Part shown: piece by piece, positions 7,839 to 63,748 of the stretch
How the letters are laid out: every line of letters begins with the position of its first letter
Position numbering within the stretch: position 1 is the first letter of the stretch
Assembly (NCBI GenBank): GCA_013333695.2
Contig: JABCOH020000013.1
Span: 4,623 to 68,622, forward strand
DNA: 64,000 bases
Source: Candidatus Saccharimonadota bacterium
GTDB lineage: Bacteria; Patescibacteriota; Saccharimonadia; Saccharimonadales; Saccharimonadaceae
Direction of reading: 5' to 3'
The notes under the pieces: generated by a model
Database searches by the model: none
What the model was told of the DNA's origin: nothing
The model's input: the letters and a program-made list of their open reading frames with translations, nothing else
Made by a program: the position numbers and the translations under genes

Positions 7839-9257
7839 CTACTGAACTTTTATCTCTCGTCGCCGCAGGAGCTTATTATACCAGCGAATCATACCGCGCC
7901 GTACTGGTCGGCCGATCATATTACCAAGCGATGCGCCGATGGCGATGGCCACGCCGATCATGATGGCTCGCGCCAATATCGCCAGTGACAGTAAAAATTC
8001 AGGGTCGGTCGGTGGATTTTCTATCACACCCATCAAGCCGTTGTAGAGCGACAAGCCTGGCACCAGCGGCACGATGCCGGCAGCGATAATGGCCACTGAA
8101 GGAAAGCGCCACAGCCGGGATGCCAGCACCGCCGTCAATCCGACTACTGTTGCTGCGGCGCCGCTGGCGATGACAACTCCGAGTGACCCAATTAGCGTAC
8201 TTGACACCCACCACCCTAACACACCGACACCGCCGGCAATCAGCATTCCGAATAAACGCGCGTGATTGCCGGCCGCGAAACCAGCGGCAATGATCAGCGC
8301 CCCCAAGTATTGCGCCCGTATGTCTGCCGCTAGTCCCAGCCGATCCGGCGTCGTTGGAAAACTAATGCCAAATCGCTGAATGATGTATAGCCCGGTCATC
8401 ACGCCGACAACGATACCCATCGTCGCCATGGTCACCCGTAGTAGCCGGGCATTTGCCGTCACGTAATATTCGTCAATCGCATCCTGAAAGGCGCCAACGA
8501 TCATCAGCCCCGCCACCAACAGCACGATACCGCTGATCACTAGCATCGTCGTATCAACCTGCCAGCCCAGCCAGCCATTCAGCCACTGGGCAGCACCCGC
8601 CGCCAGGGTGATTAGGAGTGCGGTAATGATTTGGAGGTAAAATGTTGCGAGGCCCCATTTGTCCAGAATCCTCATTGTCGCCGTCGCCACAAAGCCCATC
8701 ACAAACGCCAGCCCGCTCATCAGGATTGAGCCGTTAAATAAAATCACCACGCCCATCGATACGCCACCGCCCGCCAGGCAGACGGTCCAGCGTGAATGTT
8801 CCCGTCGATTTGTCAATAATTCCTCGGTTCGTCTCTCAGCCTCCGCTAGTGGTAAGTGATGGTCGCGAATCACGAGGGCGAGGTTTTGCAATGCTTGGAT
8901 CGTTTGGTAATTGACATACTTCAACGTGATCGTTCGCACCAACGTGAGCGGTTCGCGCTCAGAGCCGCGATCTTGAGATATAGTGATGAGCGTTGAGCTG
9001 ATATCAATGTGAACCCGTCGCCTACAGTACGTGCCAGTGATCCCTAGCGCCATATGCACGACGTCCCGTGCGGCCACTCCCATCGCTAGTAGCTCCTCGG
9101 CGATTGTCATCGTCATCCGCAGCGCTCGCATGTTCGGCGTCAGGCTCTCGTCGATTTTATCTAATTGCCAAATGGGTTCTGGCGTTGGTAATCGTGGAAT
9201 TCGTCCTAGTGATCGCTTGATAAATTCAGGTACTTTTCTTTTGACGGTTGTTTTCAC
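7839..9257 (-). CDS. ThrE-family threonine/serine exporter (fused two-domain form)
   Basis: Soluble N-terminal region then about 10 TM helices; LLVAGLMI and IVPLVPGLSLY motifs. Confidence 0.85.
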   Translation of the reverse strand: MKTTVKRKVPEFIKRSLGRIPRLPTPEPIWQLDKIDESLTPNMRALRMTMTIAEELLAMGVAARDVVHMALGITGTYCRRRVHIDISSTLITISQDRGSEREPLTLVRTITLKYVNYQTIQALQNLALVIRDHHLPLAEAERRTEELLTNRREHSRWTVCLAGGGVSMGVVILFNGSILMSGLAFVMGFVATATMRILDKWGLATFYLQIITALLITLAAGAAQWLNGWLGWQVDTTMLVISGIVLLVAGLMIVGAFQDAIDEYYVTANARLLRVTMATMGIVVGVMTGLYIIQRFGISFPTTPDRLGLAADIRAQYLGALIIAAGFAAGNHARLFGMLIAGGVGVLGWWVSSTLIGSLGVVIASGAAATVVGLTAVLASRLWRFPSVAIIAAGIVPLVPGLSLYNGLMGVIENPPTDPEFLLSLAILARAIMIGVAIAIGASLGNMIGRPVRRGMIRWYNKLLRRREIKVQ

Positions 9258-30100: not shown

Positions 30101-32695
30101 ATGAAACGCTACAATCCGACGGAAATTGAGAAAAAATGGCAAGATAAGTGGGAGGCTGGCGGCACCTATGTCACTGACCTTGGTGATACGACGCGTCCCA
30201 AATACTATAGTCTCAGTATGCTTCCTGGCATCACTGGCGCGGGCATTCATATCGGCCACGGTCGGACGTTTCAGTTTGCTGACATCAAAGCGCGATTGAA
30301 GCGTCAGCAGGGCTACAATGTGTACCATCCAATTGGCTGGGATAGTTTTGGCCTCCCCGTAGAAAATTACGCAATCAAGGTCGGTAAAACACCGCGGGTA
30401 GCACATGATGAAGCCAAAGCGCATTTCATCACCCAGTTGAAGCGGCTCGGGTTTAGCTATGATTGGACAAAGGAAATTTCTACGGCTGACCCAGAGTACT
30501 ACAAGTGGACTCAGTGGATTTTTACGCAGCTATACAAGCACGATTTGGCGTATCAAAAGGAGCAGCCGCAATGGTGGTGTGATACCGACAATACGGTGCT
30601 GGCTAACGAGCAGGTCGAGGGCGGCAAATGTTGGCGCTGCGGCAATCCTGTGACCAAGCGCAACCTCAAGCAGTGGTTTTTCCGCATCACAGCCTATGCT
30701 GATGAGATTTTGGAGGCGACTGATGACCTAGACTGGACGGAAATGGTCAAGACCATGCAGAAAAATTGGATTGGCCGGTCGGTTGGCGCAGAAGTTGACT
30801 TTGTAGTCAACGGACAGGATGCCATCATTACCGTATTCACCACGCGCCCTGACACCCTGTTTGGTGCCAGCTACGTGGCACTGGCGCCAGAGCACCCATT
30901 GGTTTCTCAGCTGGTCAATGCCGACACGCGTGCCAAGGTTGAAACATATATTCAAGCGGCGCAGCAGAAGTCCGACGTTGAACGCCAGGAAAATAAGGAT
31001 AAAACCGGCGTCTTTACTGGCAGCTATGTTGTCAATCCAGTCAATGGCCAAAAGCTGCCAATCTGGGTAGCTGACTACGTACTGAGTGGTTACGGCACGG
31101 GTGCAGTCATGGCGGTACCGGCACATGATGAACGTGACTTTGCCTTTGCTGAGAAATTCGATCTGCCAATTGTTCAGGTGGTTGACAAGCCTGAAGATTC
31201 GGCAGACATCGGTTGCTATACAGGCGAAGGTGAGTTGATTAATTCTGGGCAATTCGACGGTACGCGGAGTGAAGATGCTCGCGAGCAAATCGTAGCGTGG
31301 CTGGAACAGCAGGGATCTGGTCGCGGTAAAACTACTTACAAAATGCGTGACTGGCTGATTTCTCGCCAGCGTTACTGGGGTGCGCCAATTCCAATGGTGC
31401 ATGTTGATGGTTTCGAGCCAATTGCTGTAGCGGATGAGTGCTTGCCGGTGATTCTGCCAGAAGTCGAGAACTTTAAACCGACGGGCGGTAATACATCGGT
31501 CCTAGCGCAAGTTGATGATTGGGTGCGCGTGTGGGTTGACGTCGAGACGGGTAAAACCGCGCCGATTACTGAGCCAAAGCCTGCGGGCGACAATTGGCGT
31601 GAAGGTCGGCGCGAAACTGATACGCTGGATGGCTATGCTTGTTCCAGCTGGTATTTCCTGCGCTATCTCGACCCACACAATGACGCCGAGGCATGGAATT
31701 CTGAGCGAATTGGTCATTGGATGCCGGTCGATTATTACAACGGTGCCGACCACGCGGTGGCGCACCTACTGTACAGTCGTTTTTGGCTGCACTTGTTCCA
31801 TAAACTCGGCTTGGTGCCGACGCCAGAACCATTCAAGCGGATGATGTACAATGCTTACATCATGGCGCCAGACGGCCAAAAGATGAGTAAATCTAAGGGT
31901 AACGTCATCGATCCGATGGAAATTATGGACAGTGGTTATGGCGCTGACGCACTGCGCGTATACGAGATGTTCATCGCGCCGTACGATATGGATGCACCGT
32001 GGGATCTGCGCGGGGTACCGGGGACGTATCGGTTCTTAAACCGAGTGTGGAATGTGGTACAGGAGTTTGTGGTTGCGGATACATTACCTCCTCTGACAGA
32101 GGCTGTGAAGTGTTCGCGAATAGCGGACGCTTCAGCCGAACGCTCGCGAGAAATCTCCAGTGGAGATTTGAGCGAAGAGTGTACTCTGGCGGAGGATGGT
32201 GATGTAGCCGCGGAGCTGTTGCGTCTCACTCACCTCACTATCAAGAAAGTCACCCGCGATATCGAGGACGAAAAATTCAATACGGCGGTGGCGGCGATGA
32301 TGGAAATGGTCAATGGCCTATACAAGTTCAAAGAATCACACGGTATGCAAACGTCAGAAACATGGCGGTTTACCCTGGAGAGTCTGCTGCAAATTTTGGC
32401 ACCATTTGCGCCGCACATAACTGAAGAATTGTGGCAGGAATTGGGCCATGCTGATACCATTCACGTTAATCACTGGCCAAAGTGGGATGAAAAATATCTG
32501 GTGAGCGATGTGATAACCATCATTGTACAGGTCAACGGCAAGCTCCGATCACGGCTGGAGCTGCCAGTTGATACCGATAAAGAGACGATTGAGCAACGAG
32601 CGCTGGATGACGAGAAGGTTCGCGCCTATCTCGACGCCCGGACACCGAAAAAGGTGATTTATGTGCCAGGGAAGTTGGTGAATATTGTTGTCTAG
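30101..32695 (+). CDS. leuS: Leucine--tRNA ligase
   Basis: HIGH, GWDSFGLP, FTTRPDT, GYGTGAVMAVPAHD, KMSKS; start MKRYNP at 30101. Confidence 0.98.
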   Translation: MKRYNPTEIEKKWQDKWEAGGTYVTDLGDTTRPKYYSLSMLPGITGAGIHIGHGRTFQFADIKARLKRQQGYNVYHPIGWDSFGLPVENYAIKVGKTPRVAHDEAKAHFITQLKRLGFSYDWTKEISTADPEYYKWTQWIFTQLYKHDLAYQKEQPQWWCDTDNTVLANEQVEGGKCWRCGNPVTKRNLKQWFFRITAYADEILEATDDLDWTEMVKTMQKNWIGRSVGAEVDFVVNGQDAIITVFTTRPDTLFGASYVALAPEHPLVSQLVNADTRAKVETYIQAAQQKSDVERQENKDKTGVFTGSYVVNPVNGQKLPIWVADYVLSGYGTGAVMAVPAHDERDFAFAEKFDLPIVQVVDKPEDSADIGCYTGEGELINSGQFDGTRSEDAREQIVAWLEQQGSGRGKTTYKMRDWLISRQRYWGAPIPMVHVDGFEPIAVADECLPVILPEVENFKPTGGNTSVLAQVDDWVRVWVDVETGKTAPITEPKPAGDNWREGRRETDTLDGYACSSWYFLRYLDPHNDAEAWNSERIGHWMPVDYYNGADHAVAHLLYSRFWLHLFHKLGLVPTPEPFKRMMYNAYIMAPDGQKMSKSKGNVIDPMEIMDSGYGADALRVYEMFIAPYDMDAPWDLRGVPGTYRFLNRVWNVVQEFVVADTLPPLTEAVKCSRIADASAERSREISSGDLSEECTLAEDGDVAAELLRLTHLTIKKVTRDIEDEKFNTAVAAMMEMVNGLYKFKESHGMQTSETWRFTLESLLQILAPFAPHITEELWQELGHADTIHVNHWPKWDEKYLVSDVITIIVQVNGKLRSRLELPVDTDKETIEQRALDDEKVRAYLDARTPKKVIYVPGKLVNIVV
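32075..32211 (+). repeat. Palindromic multi-hairpin element in frame within leuS
   Basis: Long outer stem plus two internal hairpins; encodes a peptide not typical of LeuRS. Confidence 0.7.
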
Positions 32696-54607: not shown

Positions 54608-56137
54608 ATGAAATATTTACAACAACGCGGGCGCTTGCTGCCGATGCTAACGGCAGGGGTTATCACGCTCGGTGTTAGCGGCCTGACGCTACTTGCGATG
54701 ACGCAGCCAGCGAAAGCTGATCCAATTAACAATACTGATTTTGTCATGACGATTGACACCACGAAACCGGGCGTATCAAACACCGATCAATTTACTATAC
54801 CGGTGACAGGCGGGGGATATAATTATACGGTCGACTGTAACAATGACGGTATTCCTGACGCTGTGGGCGTGACGGGTAGCCACACCTGCACATACAGCGA
54901 TGAGGGTCGTCACACAATTCGTATCGGCGGTACATTCCCGCAGATTTATGTGAATAATGCCGGTGATCGTTTGAAAATCATGTCAGTTGACCAGTGGGGA
55001 ACGGGCGTGTGGCGCAGCATGGACTCGGCGTTTCGGGGCGCTGAGAATATTGACGTCAAGGCGACTGACGTGCCAAATCTCACGAACGTAACGAGCTTAC
55101 AGAGCATGTTCGACACGGCTCACTCGCTCAAGGGTGAGGGTGCCAACTGGCAATGGAATACATCAAATGTGACGACAACTGCTAATATGTTCCATGGCGC
55201 CGGACAGTTTAACCAAAACATCGGTTCGTGGAACATGGGAAATGTGACGAGCGCTGGTCATATGTTTGCGTATGCGGGAGCGTTCAATAATGGTGGCAGT
55301 TCGTCAATTGCCAGCTGGAATACTGCAAAACTTGAATACGCTGATAGTATGTTCGAGTGGGCAAATTCGTTTAATCAGCCGATCGGGCTGTGGAATATGA
55401 CGAAAGCACATGCTATGGTACGGATGTTGGCTAATGCGCGGGCATTCAACCAGTCGCTGGCTGGCTGGCAACTGACCTCGCTGCAGGACGTTACGGGTAA
55501 TCCGTATGCTGGTGGGGCGAATATGCTTGATAATACGGCGCTATCGGTGCAAAATTACGACGCAACACTGGCTGCCTGGAATAATGCAGTACTCAAGTCA
55601 CCAGTGACGCTGGGTGCGGCTGGCCTGAAATATTGTACGGCGGAGGCGGCGCATGCAGCGCTGCAAAAGACAGTGGCCGACGGTGGTCACGGCTGGACGA
55701 TCAATGGCGATGCCAAGCAGTGCCCGACCTACACGCTGACGTTTAATACCGGCTCAGGCTCACCGGTACCATCTCAAACGGTCGCCTACACTGCCAAGGC
55801 GGTGCGGCCGGCTGATCCGACGCGGGCTGGCTATACCTTTGCTGGGTGGTACGCTGATCCAACTTATCTGATGCAATGGGACTTTAACGTCCATACGATG
55901 CCAAATTCTAACTTCACGCTATACGCTAAGTGGAACGCTGTGCCAACAGCGCCGGGTAATCCAGGTGCTCCTAACCAGCCGGGTCAGCCGAGTCAACCAG
56001 GGCAGCCGGGCGCTTCGCAAGGCCGAGCGGGCAGTCAACTAGCTGATACCGGTACGAGTTTGCTGGTAGCGATCGGGGCTGGTGTTGCTGCCATCATCAG
56101 CGGTGCAGTGCTGATGATGCGGAAAAAACGCTCATAA
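54608..56137 (+). CDS. Surface protein: signal peptide, DUF285/BspA-like repeats, InlB B-repeat, P/Q/G linker, LADTG sorting signal
   Basis: WNTSNVT..MF..A..FNQ.I..W repeats; PTRAGYTFAGWY...TLYAKW; LADTG + TM + RKKR. Confidence 0.88.
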   Translation: MKYLQQRGRLLPMLTAGVITLGVSGLTLLAMTQPAKADPINNTDFVMTIDTTKPGVSNTDQFTIPVTGGGYNYTVDCNNDGIPDAVGVTGSHTCTYSDEGRHTIRIGGTFPQIYVNNAGDRLKIMSVDQWGTGVWRSMDSAFRGAENIDVKATDVPNLTNVTSLQSMFDTAHSLKGEGANWQWNTSNVTTTANMFHGAGQFNQNIGSWNMGNVTSAGHMFAYAGAFNNGGSSSIASWNTAKLEYADSMFEWANSFNQPIGLWNMTKAHAMVRMLANARAFNQSLAGWQLTSLQDVTGNPYAGGANMLDNTALSVQNYDATLAAWNNAVLKSPVTLGAAGLKYCTAEAAHAALQKTVADGGHGWTINGDAKQCPTYTLTFNTGSGSPVPSQTVAYTAKAVRPADPTRAGYTFAGWYADPTYLMQWDFNVHTMPNSNFTLYAKWNAVPTAPGNPGAPNQPGQPSQPGQPGASQGRAGSQLADTGTSLLVAIGAGVAAIISGAVLMMRKKRS

Positions 56138-56179
56138 AGATCCAGAGTATCTGAGGCGACTTGTGCTATAATTGCTCCT

Positions 56180-58063
56180 ATGAACGCTCAAGAAATTCGC
56201 CTCAAATATCTCGACTTTTACAGCAAACAGGCTCACGCAGTCATCAAGCGCGCGCCGCTGATTCTAACCGACGATCCGACAACGCTATTTACCGGTGCGG
56301 GTATGCAGCCGATGATCCCATATTTACTCGGTGAGCCGCATCCTGAGGGTAAGCGAATCGCTGATTCACAGACGTGCTTGCGAGCGCAGGATATTGATGA
56401 TATCGGTGATAACCGTCACACGACGTTTTTTGAAATGCTCGGCAACTGGAGCTTGGGTGATTATTTCAAAAAAGAGCAGATCAATTGGATGTGGCAATTC
56501 CTGTCCGAAGAGGTTGGGCTGGACATGAACCGGATTTATATCACCTGTTACATTGGTGATGAACGCTACAATATTCCTAAGGATACCGAGGCAGCGGAAA
56601 TCTGGGCGGAGCTATACGAAAAAGCAGGCCTGAGCAGCGGTCAGGCCGATATTGGTTCGGAAGAAGCCGGTTATGCGCGTGGCATTTACCCGGGCGAGCG
56701 GATTTTCTTTTATGATGGCAGTAAGAACTGGTGGAGCCGTAACGGCGGGCCAGAAACCACGCCGATTGGTGATCCGTGCGGGCCGGATAGCGAGATGTTT
56801 TATGAGTTTGACTTCATTGAGCACGATCCGAAGTTTGGTAGGCACTGTCATCCGAATTGTGATTGCGGTCGCTTTATGGAGATCGGTAACAATGTCTTTA
56901 TGGCCTATAAAAAGGTGGCGGACGGCGTGTTTGAGCCACTAGAAAAGCCAAACATTGATCATGGTTCGGGTCTGGAACGAATTGCGGCGGCCGCTAATAA
57001 CGACCCTGATGTCTTCAAGATTAGCTTGCTGTGGCCAATCGTCGAGAAATTGCAGGATTTGAGCGGTAAAAAGTACGCGTCACATACCGAAAGTATGCGG
57101 GTAATCGCTGATCATCTGAGGGCCGCTACCTTTATGGCGGTCGATGGCTGCGTGCCGAGCAATAAGGAACAGGGCTACGTGATGCGCCGCTTACTACGCC
57201 GGGCGATTCGCTATAGTTTTGACCTGGGGATCGAGCAGAATTTCCTGGAGGAAGTCGTACCAGTAATCGCTGATTTATATGAAGCGGATTTCCCAGAAGT
57301 TAAGGAAAACCGCGAGAGTATCATCGCTGTTCTCGTTAAGGAAGAAAAAGCCTTCCGTCAGACGCTGCGTAAAGGCTTAAAACAAATGCAGCAGTATATC
57401 GACGATGGTTTGACTGGCGAAGAACTATTTACACTGTACGATACCTTTGGCTTTCCGGTGGAGCTGAGCACTGAGGAGGCGTATAAACAAGGCATCAAGC
57501 TTTCTGATAACTGGCGCGCTGAATTTGATGCTAAGATGGACGAGCAACGCCAACGCTCCAAGACAGCACGCAAGGGGCAATTTAGCGGCGGCCTGGAGGG
57601 GCACGATCCGATTCATCTCAAGTATCATACGGCAACGCATCTGTTGGGAGCGGCACTACGCAAAGTCCTCGATGCGCCGGATTTGCAGCAGCATGGTAGC
57701 AATATCACGGCTGAGCGCCTGCGCTTTGATTTCAATCACCATAAATTGACGCCGGAGGAAAAGCAGGCGGTGGAGGATCAAGTTAATGCCTGGATCGACG
57801 CTGATTTGCCAGTCAGCTTTGCCGTCTATCCGACTGACGAGGCGCTAAAAATGGGTGCAATCGGCGCCTTTGGCGAGCGCTACGGTGATACGGTGAAAGT
57901 CTATTCCATTGGCGAGGGTGACAATATCATTAGCTTTGAAGTCTGCGGCGGCCCGCACGTCGAGCACACGGGTATTTTGGCTGAGGGCGGCAAGCGCTTC
58001 ACCATCACCAAAGAAGAGGCGAGCGCTGCTGGGATTCGGCGGATTAAGGCGATACTTGACTGA
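56180..58063 (+). CDS. alaS: Alanine--tRNA ligase (short, no C-Ala domain)
   Basis: TLFTGAGM, HTTFFEMLGNWS, GLERI, LYDTFGFP, HTATH, CGGPH, GIRRI. Confidence 0.97.
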   Translation: MNAQEIRLKYLDFYSKQAHAVIKRAPLILTDDPTTLFTGAGMQPMIPYLLGEPHPEGKRIADSQTCLRAQDIDDIGDNRHTTFFEMLGNWSLGDYFKKEQINWMWQFLSEEVGLDMNRIYITCYIGDERYNIPKDTEAAEIWAELYEKAGLSSGQADIGSEEAGYARGIYPGERIFFYDGSKNWWSRNGGPETTPIGDPCGPDSEMFYEFDFIEHDPKFGRHCHPNCDCGRFMEIGNNVFMAYKKVADGVFEPLEKPNIDHGSGLERIAAAANNDPDVFKISLLWPIVEKLQDLSGKKYASHTESMRVIADHLRAATFMAVDGCVPSNKEQGYVMRRLLRRAIRYSFDLGIEQNFLEEVVPVIADLYEADFPEVKENRESIIAVLVKEEKAFRQTLRKGLKQMQQYIDDGLTGEELFTLYDTFGFPVELSTEEAYKQGIKLSDNWRAEFDAKMDEQRQRSKTARKGQFSGGLEGHDPIHLKYHTATHLLGAALRKVLDAPDLQQHGSNITAERLRFDFNHHKLTPEEKQAVEDQVNAWIDADLPVSFAVYPTDEALKMGAIGAFGERYGDTVKVYSIGEGDNIISFEVCGGPHVEHTGILAEGGKRFTITKEEASAAGIRRIKAILD

Positions 58064-62547: not shown

Positions 62548-62940
62548 ATGTCAACGATAGATCAGCAATTTGTAGAATACGTAGTAAAGGCGCTGGTTGG
62601 ACATCCAGAAGATGTCGTCGTCGAGCGTTTGATTGATGAAAAGGGAGTGTTGCTCACGCTGACGGTTAACCCAGAGGACCTCGGTCGGGTCATTGGTAAG
62701 CGTGGCGGTACGGCACAGAGCCTGCGGACACTACTCAGGGCATTGGGGACGAAGAATGATGCACGTTATAACCTGAAAATCGTCAATAATGACGGCTTTA
62801 CAAGCGCCAAGCAAGCTACGACTGCCGCTTCAGACGATGATTCTGTGGACAACTCAACAGATGAAACTGTGGAAAATAGCTCTTCTTATGCAGAAAATAC
62901 TCGAAAAGAGCTTGCAGAACTGGATGATCTTGATATATAA
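62548..62940 (+). CDS. khpA: KH-domain RNA-binding protein
   Basis: EYVVKALV..PEDV, DLGRVIGKRGGTA; ATG 62548 after AAGGAGG. Confidence 0.92.
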   Translation: MSTIDQQFVEYVVKALVGHPEDVVVERLIDEKGVLLTLTVNPEDLGRVIGKRGGTAQSLRTLLRALGTKNDARYNLKIVNNDGFTSAKQATTAASDDDSVDNSTDETVENSSSYAENTRKELAELDDLDI

Positions 62941-63022
62941 TCATAACTAGTTCAAGCACAGACGATATGCGAGAACAGCTCTATGCGAGCAATGGGTAAC
63001 CATTGAGAGCCTTATTTGTGCT

Positions 63023-63053
63023 AAAAAACCGCCTAGCTAAAGGGCGGTTTTTT
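63023..63053. terminator. Intrinsic terminator after khpA
   Basis: AAAAAACCGCC-TAGCTAAAG-GGCGGTTTTTT. Confidence 0.85.
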
Positions 63054-63088
63054 GGTGGTTTTTATGTGGGCGCGGTATAATGAAGGGT

Positions 63089-63748
63089 ATGCGAAAATTT
63101 CAAGTCATTACCCTGTTTCCCGAAATGTTCTCTGGGGTGTTTGAAAATTCTATGATGTGGAAGGCGCAAAAAGATGGTATCGTTTCACTCGAGACAGTGA
63201 ACTTGCGTGAATTTGGTCTGGGGCCGCGCCGGCAAGTCGATGATACGCCATATGGCGGCGGCGATGGGATGCTACTAATGATCGAGCCGTTATGGCGGGC
63301 AGTGGAATTTGCCAGGTCGCGCGATGAGAGCGCGAAGGTTGTCCTGATGAGCCCACGTGGTCGGCGCTGGCGGCAGGCGATGGCGCGCACGGCGGCGGAT
63401 GATGGCCGGGGGCTCATTATCATCTGCGGGCGATATGAGGGCGTTGACGAGCGCATTATGGAACTAGTAGATGAGCAGTGGAGTATCGGTGATTTTGTGC
63501 TGACTGGTGGCGAGCTGCCGGCGATGACCATTATTGATTCGATCGTGCGGCTGCTGCCAGGTGTGCTGGGCGGTGAAACGTCAGCGGAGATCGAGAGCTT
63601 CTCGGACAGCAAGACACTCGAGTATCCGCAGTACACTCGGCCAGAGATATTTAATGGCCTACGAGTACCGGAAGTACTACTGAGCGGGCACCACGGCAAG
63701 ATCGCCGAGTGGCGCAAAAAGCAGTCGCAAAAAGCAGCCGTTGATTAG
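63089..63748 (+). CDS. trmD: tRNA (guanine37-N1)-methyltransferase
   Basis: ITLFPE, VDDTPYGGG, CGRYEGVDER, SIGDFVLTGGE, LEYPQYTRP, LLSG. Confidence 0.98.
   Translation: MRKFQVITLFPEMFSGVFENSMMWKAQKDGIVSLETVNLREFGLGPRRQVDDTPYGGGDGMLLMIEPLWRAVEFARSRDESAKVVLMSPRGRRWRQAMARTAADDGRGLIIICGRYEGVDERIMELVDEQWSIGDFVLTGGELPAMTIIDSIVRLLPGVLGGETSAEIESFSDSKTLEYPQYTRPEIFNGLRVPEVLLSGHHGKIAEWRKKQSQKAAVD

Follow-up and report, generated by a model that had tools for sequence, protein, structure and literature searches.

We consider it fairly probable that the leuS gene of the window (the whole stretch of DNA analysed here, 64,000 nucleotides) carries one copy of a multi-copy Saccharibacteria repeat of about 117 bp, placed in a variable surface loop of leucyl-tRNA synthetase (LeuRS), that is likely selfish and non-autonomous, is predicted to fold as a three-way junction and is likely translated as a tolerated flexible peptide. 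The repeat family is real, structure-defined and apparently unpublished: no account of in-frame palindromic elements in Saccharibacteria or Nanosynbacter was found in the literature covered, subscription papers being outside its scope. As read from the aligned copies, what is conserved is a putative three-way junction in which short motifs are invariant and the stems are free, common also to distant relatives that are mostly intergenic. The insertion sites in the genus are few and reused.

The host gene and its loop

The leuS gene (30101..32695, + strand) encodes 864 aa from the ATG at 30101, contains the Pfam domains tRNA-synt_1, tRNA-synt_1_2 and Anticodon_1, and gives a product that matches the T. 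thermophilus LeuRS 1h3n (phmmer, E 4e-221); the record titles of its relatives name Saccharibacteria, Ca. Nanosynbacter and TM7 oral taxa. The LeuRS signature HIGH is found in a divergent context (SMLPGITGAG-IHIGH, within 30101-30250), and the leucyl-specific domain of 1h3n (residues 580-636) is nearly missing.

The original prediction had singled out an odd stretch of about 40 aa in this protein. It corresponds to 42 in-frame codons (32078..32203, + strand; residues 660-701) encoded by strongly folding DNA (z about -8), in the loop joining the first two helices of the anticodon-binding bundle. Between the alignment anchors, the window LeuRS has 49 residues vs 22 in 1h3n; the loop varies in length among distant orthologues, and in the shortest leuS alleles of the genus it is 36 aa shorter than in the window allele. 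The AlphaFold model assigns a pLDDT of 43-52 to most of the insert, vs 90-97 in the flanking helices.

Predicted fold and conserved junction of the element

On the + strand, the whole stem-loop with its site-specific outer arms spans 32075..32211 and scores 163.9 bits with the covariance model R1, and within it lies the family core, a symmetric unit of 117 bp (39 codons; 32085..32201) common to the copies in other genes, as delimited by BLAST matches spanning 32085/32086-32201 and by alignment A1. The outer stem P1 is formed by a 5' arm (32075..32101), whose outer part is site-specific and whose inner, covarying part is family-wide, and by a 3' arm (32184..32211) supported by the predicted fold and a stem check. 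It encloses the first conserved junction motif (CTGTG, 32103..32107), the last TG of which opens hairpin P2 (32106..32134), the second motif (CAGCCGAACGC, 32133..32143), hairpin P3 with its asymmetric internal loop (32141..32174), and the third motif, of AGAGTG type (32176..32184). The stems and hairpins listed in the original prediction are all present, namely GCGG (32075-32078) with CCGC (32208-32211), TACATTACC (32080-32088) with GGTGATGTA (32198-32206), TCCTCTG (32089-32095) with CGGAGGA (32190-32196), CAGAG (32097-32101) with CTCTG (32184-32188), and its two hairpins, which coincide with P2 and P3.

The segment 32070-32215 folds with -77.7 kcal/mol as RNA (z -8.1) and -40.7 kcal/mol as DNA (z -7.4), values reached by none of 200 shuffles in either case. 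With 140-nt windows and GC correction, no other + strand segment of the 64 kb folds more stably (z -4.85); when both strands are scanned in 100-nt windows it drops to fifth place, since its long outer stem exceeds such a window. Other strong local folds, at 56026-56225, 8201-8375 and 62921-63100 (z about -3 to -3.7 with 100-nt windows), are outside the element family, and no second copy was found within the window.

In the 39 rows of the wide alignment A2, only TGTG, CAGCCsAACrC and the AGAGTG-type motif are fixed: TGTG is invariant in all rows, the second motif has 9 of its 11 positions invariant and the remaining 2 conserved in at least 90%, and the third has three invariant and two near-invariant positions. 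The stems, by comparison, are compensated throughout, with changes on both sides in 40 of 44 pairs (8 of 10 in P2, all 7 modelled pairs in P3) and a score reached by none of 500 shuffles; in the genus alignment, 20 of 43 pairs covary. Pairing in A2 holds in 85% of cells vs 56% in shuffles and 35-46% in slid controls, figures inflated by the by-eye choice of three-arm copies. The freedom of the stems is also seen within a single genome, G232, whose 16 copies each have their own outer arm and their own inner hairpins.

The folded strand

On the element strand, consensus G-T pairs outnumber A-C pairs by 26:1 in the sense classes and by 26:5 in the antisense classes (20:1 without one mis-registered row). 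The bias recurs in the outer arms of 35 distant copies (68:39, p 0.007) and of 18 genus representatives (38:22, p 0.05) and is weak in recent variants, whether antisense (35:24, p 0.19), sense (39:22, p 0.04) or intergenic (16:10), all of these p-values being overstated since the copies are related by descent. Present-day selection on the fold within the genus can therefore not be claimed from the recent variants. Since the G-T excess follows the element strand even in antisense copies, the fold is that of the element strand and not of the mRNA. The G-U signal of the original prediction is thus real and tracks the element's own strand, but it persists in antisense copies and gives no pointer to selection on the mRNA. 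The element's own strand would most likely be read as single-stranded DNA.

The folded strand is C-rich in 19 of 26 distant copies and 12 of 18 genus representatives, and it is the lagging-type strand for 18 of 26 copies in five complete genomes, a count that assumes the terminus at mid-length and includes sites shared between genomes. A lock to the replichore was rejected because the latter preference is partial, and the C-rich preference is a tendency that survival bias could produce. The active strands of IS200/IS605 elements have the opposite preference.

The same data bear on an unlikely alternative, namely that the element strand gives rise to a structured RNA, either a protein-binding module or a small ribozyme, which spreads through an RNA step and leaves the coding copies as by-products. 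Structured RNAs typically combine invariant single-stranded junction motifs with stems that vary freely under compensation, G-U pairs here exceed A-C, and the P1-NCUG-P2-GCCGA-P3-R topology bears what we take to be a loose likeness to the hammerhead core. However, G-T wobble is favoured in single-stranded DNA too, no Rfam family covers the element (no match to the covariance models over it at E up to 10, and just two sub-threshold chance matches on 7 distant loci), no reverse transcriptase (RVT_1) occurs in 5 genomes, and the orientation of the copies is unrelated to that of the neighbouring genes.

Distribution of the copies

The searches for further copies by BLASTN and covariance model, which had been proposed as a check, were productive. 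The nearest genome (G001) has five BLAST copies, located in leuS, topA, an ABC-F ATPase gene, the region that links RNase HII to YraN (UPF0102) in a fusion gene, and between the convergent relA and ppa genes; the fusion (L004:1136-2218) places RNase HII and YraN in one frame. By BLAST, the element is present in 18 of 37 genomes of the genus and in none of 24 other genera, and the covariance model matches 37 of 54 genus genomes that are at least 95% complete, with 1-7 copies each. A further 39 loci taken from the model's matches include a shorter subfamily with the same junction and add dus, der, tsaD and dnaX as in-frame hosts, so that the element is known in frame in eight genes (leuS, topA, ABC-F ATPase, rnhB-yraN, dus, der, tsaD, dnaX) and in the relA-ppa spacer; relA, ppa, dus, der and tsaD were named by reading translations, not by a family scan. 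A Saccharibacteria family that adds peptides to essential proteins, as first proposed, is supported by these copies in unrelated genes and by short alleles. The opposite picture, a peptide uniform among orthologues and no other copies, fails, since orthologues do not conserve the peptide, some alleles are short and unrelated genes contain copies.

Beyond the genus, the covariance model found distant relatives in four other genera (151 order genomes); 5 of 150 order genomes carry them, mostly in intergenic positions and up to the 16 copies of G232. An exact pattern, which passes over variants, matched 4 of 401 genomes of the phylum, all within the family of the window. The pattern scan of metagenomes gave at least 120 stretches, and 50 non-genus candidates among the matches listed passed a hairpin filter, of which 34 were kept by eye as full three-arm elements and 16 were dropped (3 viral, 10 without outer stem, 2 genus copies, 1 truncated). 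Twenty-five of the kept copies come from metagenomes and carry no host assignment. Almost all (32/34) overlap no reading frame of at least 100 aa, and together they face the neighbouring genes in every arrangement; the genes beside distant copies are ordinary (44 neighbours scanned). Two genomes of the same genus as G261 (G646 and G282) do not have the inserts that G261 carries at rpl21-parA and parB-lepB. In G261, parA-parB is bracketed by two direct copies (L179, L184), and in G232 two inverted copies (L381/L382, G232:C5 8074-10102) bracket one gene for a transporter-like protein of 405 aa. Phage and plasmid collections gave no match to the element, and viral contigs gave four loose pattern matches, all without outer stem, and none with two stricter patterns.

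Reading frame and probable translation

In 96 distinct full-length coding copies, two 3-bp indels occur and no frame-breaking one, vs 4 of 16 intergenic copies with indels of 1 or 2 bp (the set being 16 after removal of one short ABC-F locus from 17), a difference for which the Fisher p of 3e-4 is to be read with the relatedness of the copies in mind. Because the frame is preserved in the coding copies, read-through of the insert is likely, as far as sequence comparison can tell. Although four of the six frames of the window copy are open, just one per strand is in use in the 10 gene-orientation classes, and these are the two lowest in W, F, Y and C; the in-place flip of the unit links both frames, and the 10 classes are therefore not independent choices. 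Genic insertions would persist only where a loop tolerates them and where the frame is one of the two with hydrophilic products.

With the flanking codons placed side by side by the long outer stem, a mini-intron or a translational bypass signal comes to mind, in which the stem would unite the flanks and the insert would be passed over. This is very improbable, given that antisense copies, whose mRNA is the complement, occupy the same sites in five genes, that frames are kept with only the hydrophilic ones in use, and that distant copies are mostly intergenic.

Alleles and probable recombination at shared sites

In the genus, the leuS loop has short alleles of 28-35 aa between the anchors and filled alleles of 60-78 aa, the latter including the sense element (64 aa) and two antisense forms (60 and 78 aa); further alleles have deletion remnants or either of two other repeat families in place of the element. 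The alignment of LeuS from relatives, proposed as a way to find empty sites, did yield the short alleles, but none of them is definable as a pristine pre-insertion allele. Specifically, the deletion allele, marked by a CATCC repeat, is one clade nested among carriers and is therefore derived rather than a pre-insertion site. A target duplication is likewise not definable, with no pristine pre-insertion allele for comparison.

Both orientations are present in five genes (leuS, ABC-F, topA, rnhB, dus). In leuS, the sense and the 78-aa antisense alleles have the same outer arms, and an in-place flip of the symmetric 117-bp unit would yield just this antisense frame. Allele types are interleaved in a tree of 85 leuS flank sequences, although its bootstrap had not converged, and the sense state needs 9 changes, at least 5 of them forced by well-supported branches. 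Moreover, an identical 144-bp copy, both arms included, is found in rnhB and dnaX of G083, with no site-specific duplication adjoining the twins, and an identical 221-bp composite is found in ABC-F and relA-ppa of G001; such identity at unlinked sites shows recent copying. Stacking of several repeat families produces loops of up to 125 aa.

From these observations we infer that recombination, inversion and slippage now dominate the spread of the element in this genus, which, on the sequences compared, looks largely like recombination among a few sites. The genus copies would be reshuffled mainly by inversion between the outer arms, copying between sites, exchange of alleles among lineages and deletions across short repeats, and this reshuffling would generate mosaic arrays with other repeat families. 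The idea that the outer arm is made from the host flank at each insertion was discarded as not needed, both arms having moved intact between the two G083 genes and the inner hairpins varying equally freely, although the host may still be the source of the outermost 8-10 bp, the 60-aa leuS allele being a case in point.

Several other repeats were observed in these loops. A second family, a single long hairpin in either orientation, occupies the same loops in leuS (L108, L152-L154) and in topA, ABC-F and dus (L005, L028, L315), with peptides of 'NNPGP...AQIFSE' or 'KTIRDP...QIFSE' type; a third, ending in 'RSEEADGGK', is found in leuS (L154) and dnaX (L330), and some short leuS alleles resemble its deletion remnants. 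A fourth module ('SLSDKSI...LPDAFD'; L002/L003, L338/L340) accompanies the element among ABC-F, der and relA-ppa. Additionally, an unrelated insert extends a tsaD loop to 80 aa (L403-L406), vs 22 aa in G062, and in the leuS of another Saccharibacteria genome (L134), short AAAAGTG-type tandem repeats ('LKVKSEKLKV') fill the same LeuRS loop.

The reuse of the same few genes in many species, together with arrays of several repeat families, could also indicate domestication, with the element kept for the cell as a host protein-binding or chromosome-organising site or as a source of useful variable loops, and the strong structural conservation across families would agree with this. Such a role appears quite improbable, since no match is found in 17 of the 54 near-complete (at least 95%) genus genomes or in 145 of 150 order genomes, copies are inverted, truncated or replaced freely at the same site, and the peptides are wholly different between orientations.

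Search for a mobiliser

For a selfish repeat of this kind, a trans-acting enzyme would recognise the junction and not a terminal sequence; tentatively, this enzyme may belong to the HUH/Y1-type strand-transfer class. The linked mobiliser for which a search had been suggested did not turn up among Y1_Tnp, GIY-YIG, DUF559, RVT_1, IS110 or tyrosine recombinase loci. Specifically, Y1_Tnp is absent from the 10 element-tested genomes, and DUF559 and IS110 are absent, like RVT_1, from 5 genomes; the GIY-YIG matches are UvrC-sized or truncated frames, except for two (G007, G232:C102) with no tie to the element, and the tyrosine recombinase loci contain no element. Of 201 family genomes, 37 have RAYT-like genes, but none of 6 sampled from this genus does. 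Twenty Y1 loci (17 RAYT-like) of the 68 Y1 matches listed in family genomes have other short hairpins and generic stem matches, with no junction. These RAYT/TIRYT-like Y1 genes (L419-L435) encode about 200-230 aa, reach up to four per genome and each lie beside their own short hairpin pair; some hairpins beside the sampled RAYT-like genes have a GGGGACTGTCCCC-type motif resembling the published GGGGWSAS.

Comparison with known repeat systems

The closest description is that of the Rickettsia palindromic elements (RPEs), of which RPE-1 to RPE-3 were reportedly introduced by Ogata et al. in 2000 and 2002. The analogy drawn in the original prediction holds for size, fold, copy number and insertion: the element is a unit of 100-150 bp with a long terminal stem and a stable fold, has several copies per genome, both intergenic and inside unrelated conserved genes, and is in frame at exposed variable positions in genes whose orthologues lack the insert. 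In the RPE literature (PMC10969869, PMC2229807, PMC3767692), RPEs are likewise units of 100-150 bp predicted to form long stem-loops with terminal inverted repeats, with intergenic and in-frame copies in conserved genes at solvent-exposed sites, in host-dependent bacteria with small genomes and with no established transposase, and orthologue sites may be common to different repeat groups (PMC3767692). An RPE in gmk is translated and leaves the enzyme active, and an RPE transposase has no experimental support, according to PMC2229807. In contrast, the host here belongs to another phylum, the copy number is 1-7 per genus genome vs 44 RPE-1 in R. conorii (PMC10969869), identity resides in three junction motifs while all stems, terminal arms included, change freely, and either orientation occurs at one site. 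The element is thus RPE-like in its apparent mode of action but is not filed as an RPE proper (RPE-1 to RPE-10), the hosts being Saccharibacteria and the likeness one of description.

The REP/BIME/REPIN systems, moved by RAYT or TIRYT transposases, share strand-specific hairpins, some of them intragenic in replication, repair and tRNA-synthetase genes, and mosaic arrays of several motifs (PMC3733652). The fold here is larger and three-armed; a GTAG or CGTC terminal tag is absent from the conserved columns of A1 and A2, and the lack of this tag and of a linked RAYT is the reason for not filing the element as a REP. Bacterial MITEs (Correia, ERIC, RUP, YPAL) are similar in being small, without an encoded enzyme, strongly folded and able to form in-frame fusions (PMC2229807). 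The element, however, has no TA ends, and no target duplication could be made out at its sites. No terminal inverted-repeat sequence is conserved, the outer arms differing even among the 16 copies of one genome, and the element is not filed as a MITE for want of a conserved terminal sequence.

Implications

The surprising parts are the fixed junction amid freely varying stems and the flipping and exchange at shared sites. There is a slim chance that the invariant three-way junction is itself active. The element would then be a new self-propagating structured nucleic acid defined by shape and not by terminal sequence, either a small ribozyme or a junction of DNA with a dedicated strand-transfer partner, and in ultra-small bacteria it would have turned into a system of recombining cassettes for protein loops. 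With dozens of copies that have almost no stem sequence in common and keep about 20 junction bases, the family gives pull-down, cleavage and transposition assays a precisely defined substrate. For the study of oral Saccharibacteria, the inserts distort marker-gene alignments, and for their biology, they indicate that streamlined genomes tolerate, within essential enzymes, loops of 55-125 aa assembled from repeat modules that can be flipped and exchanged.
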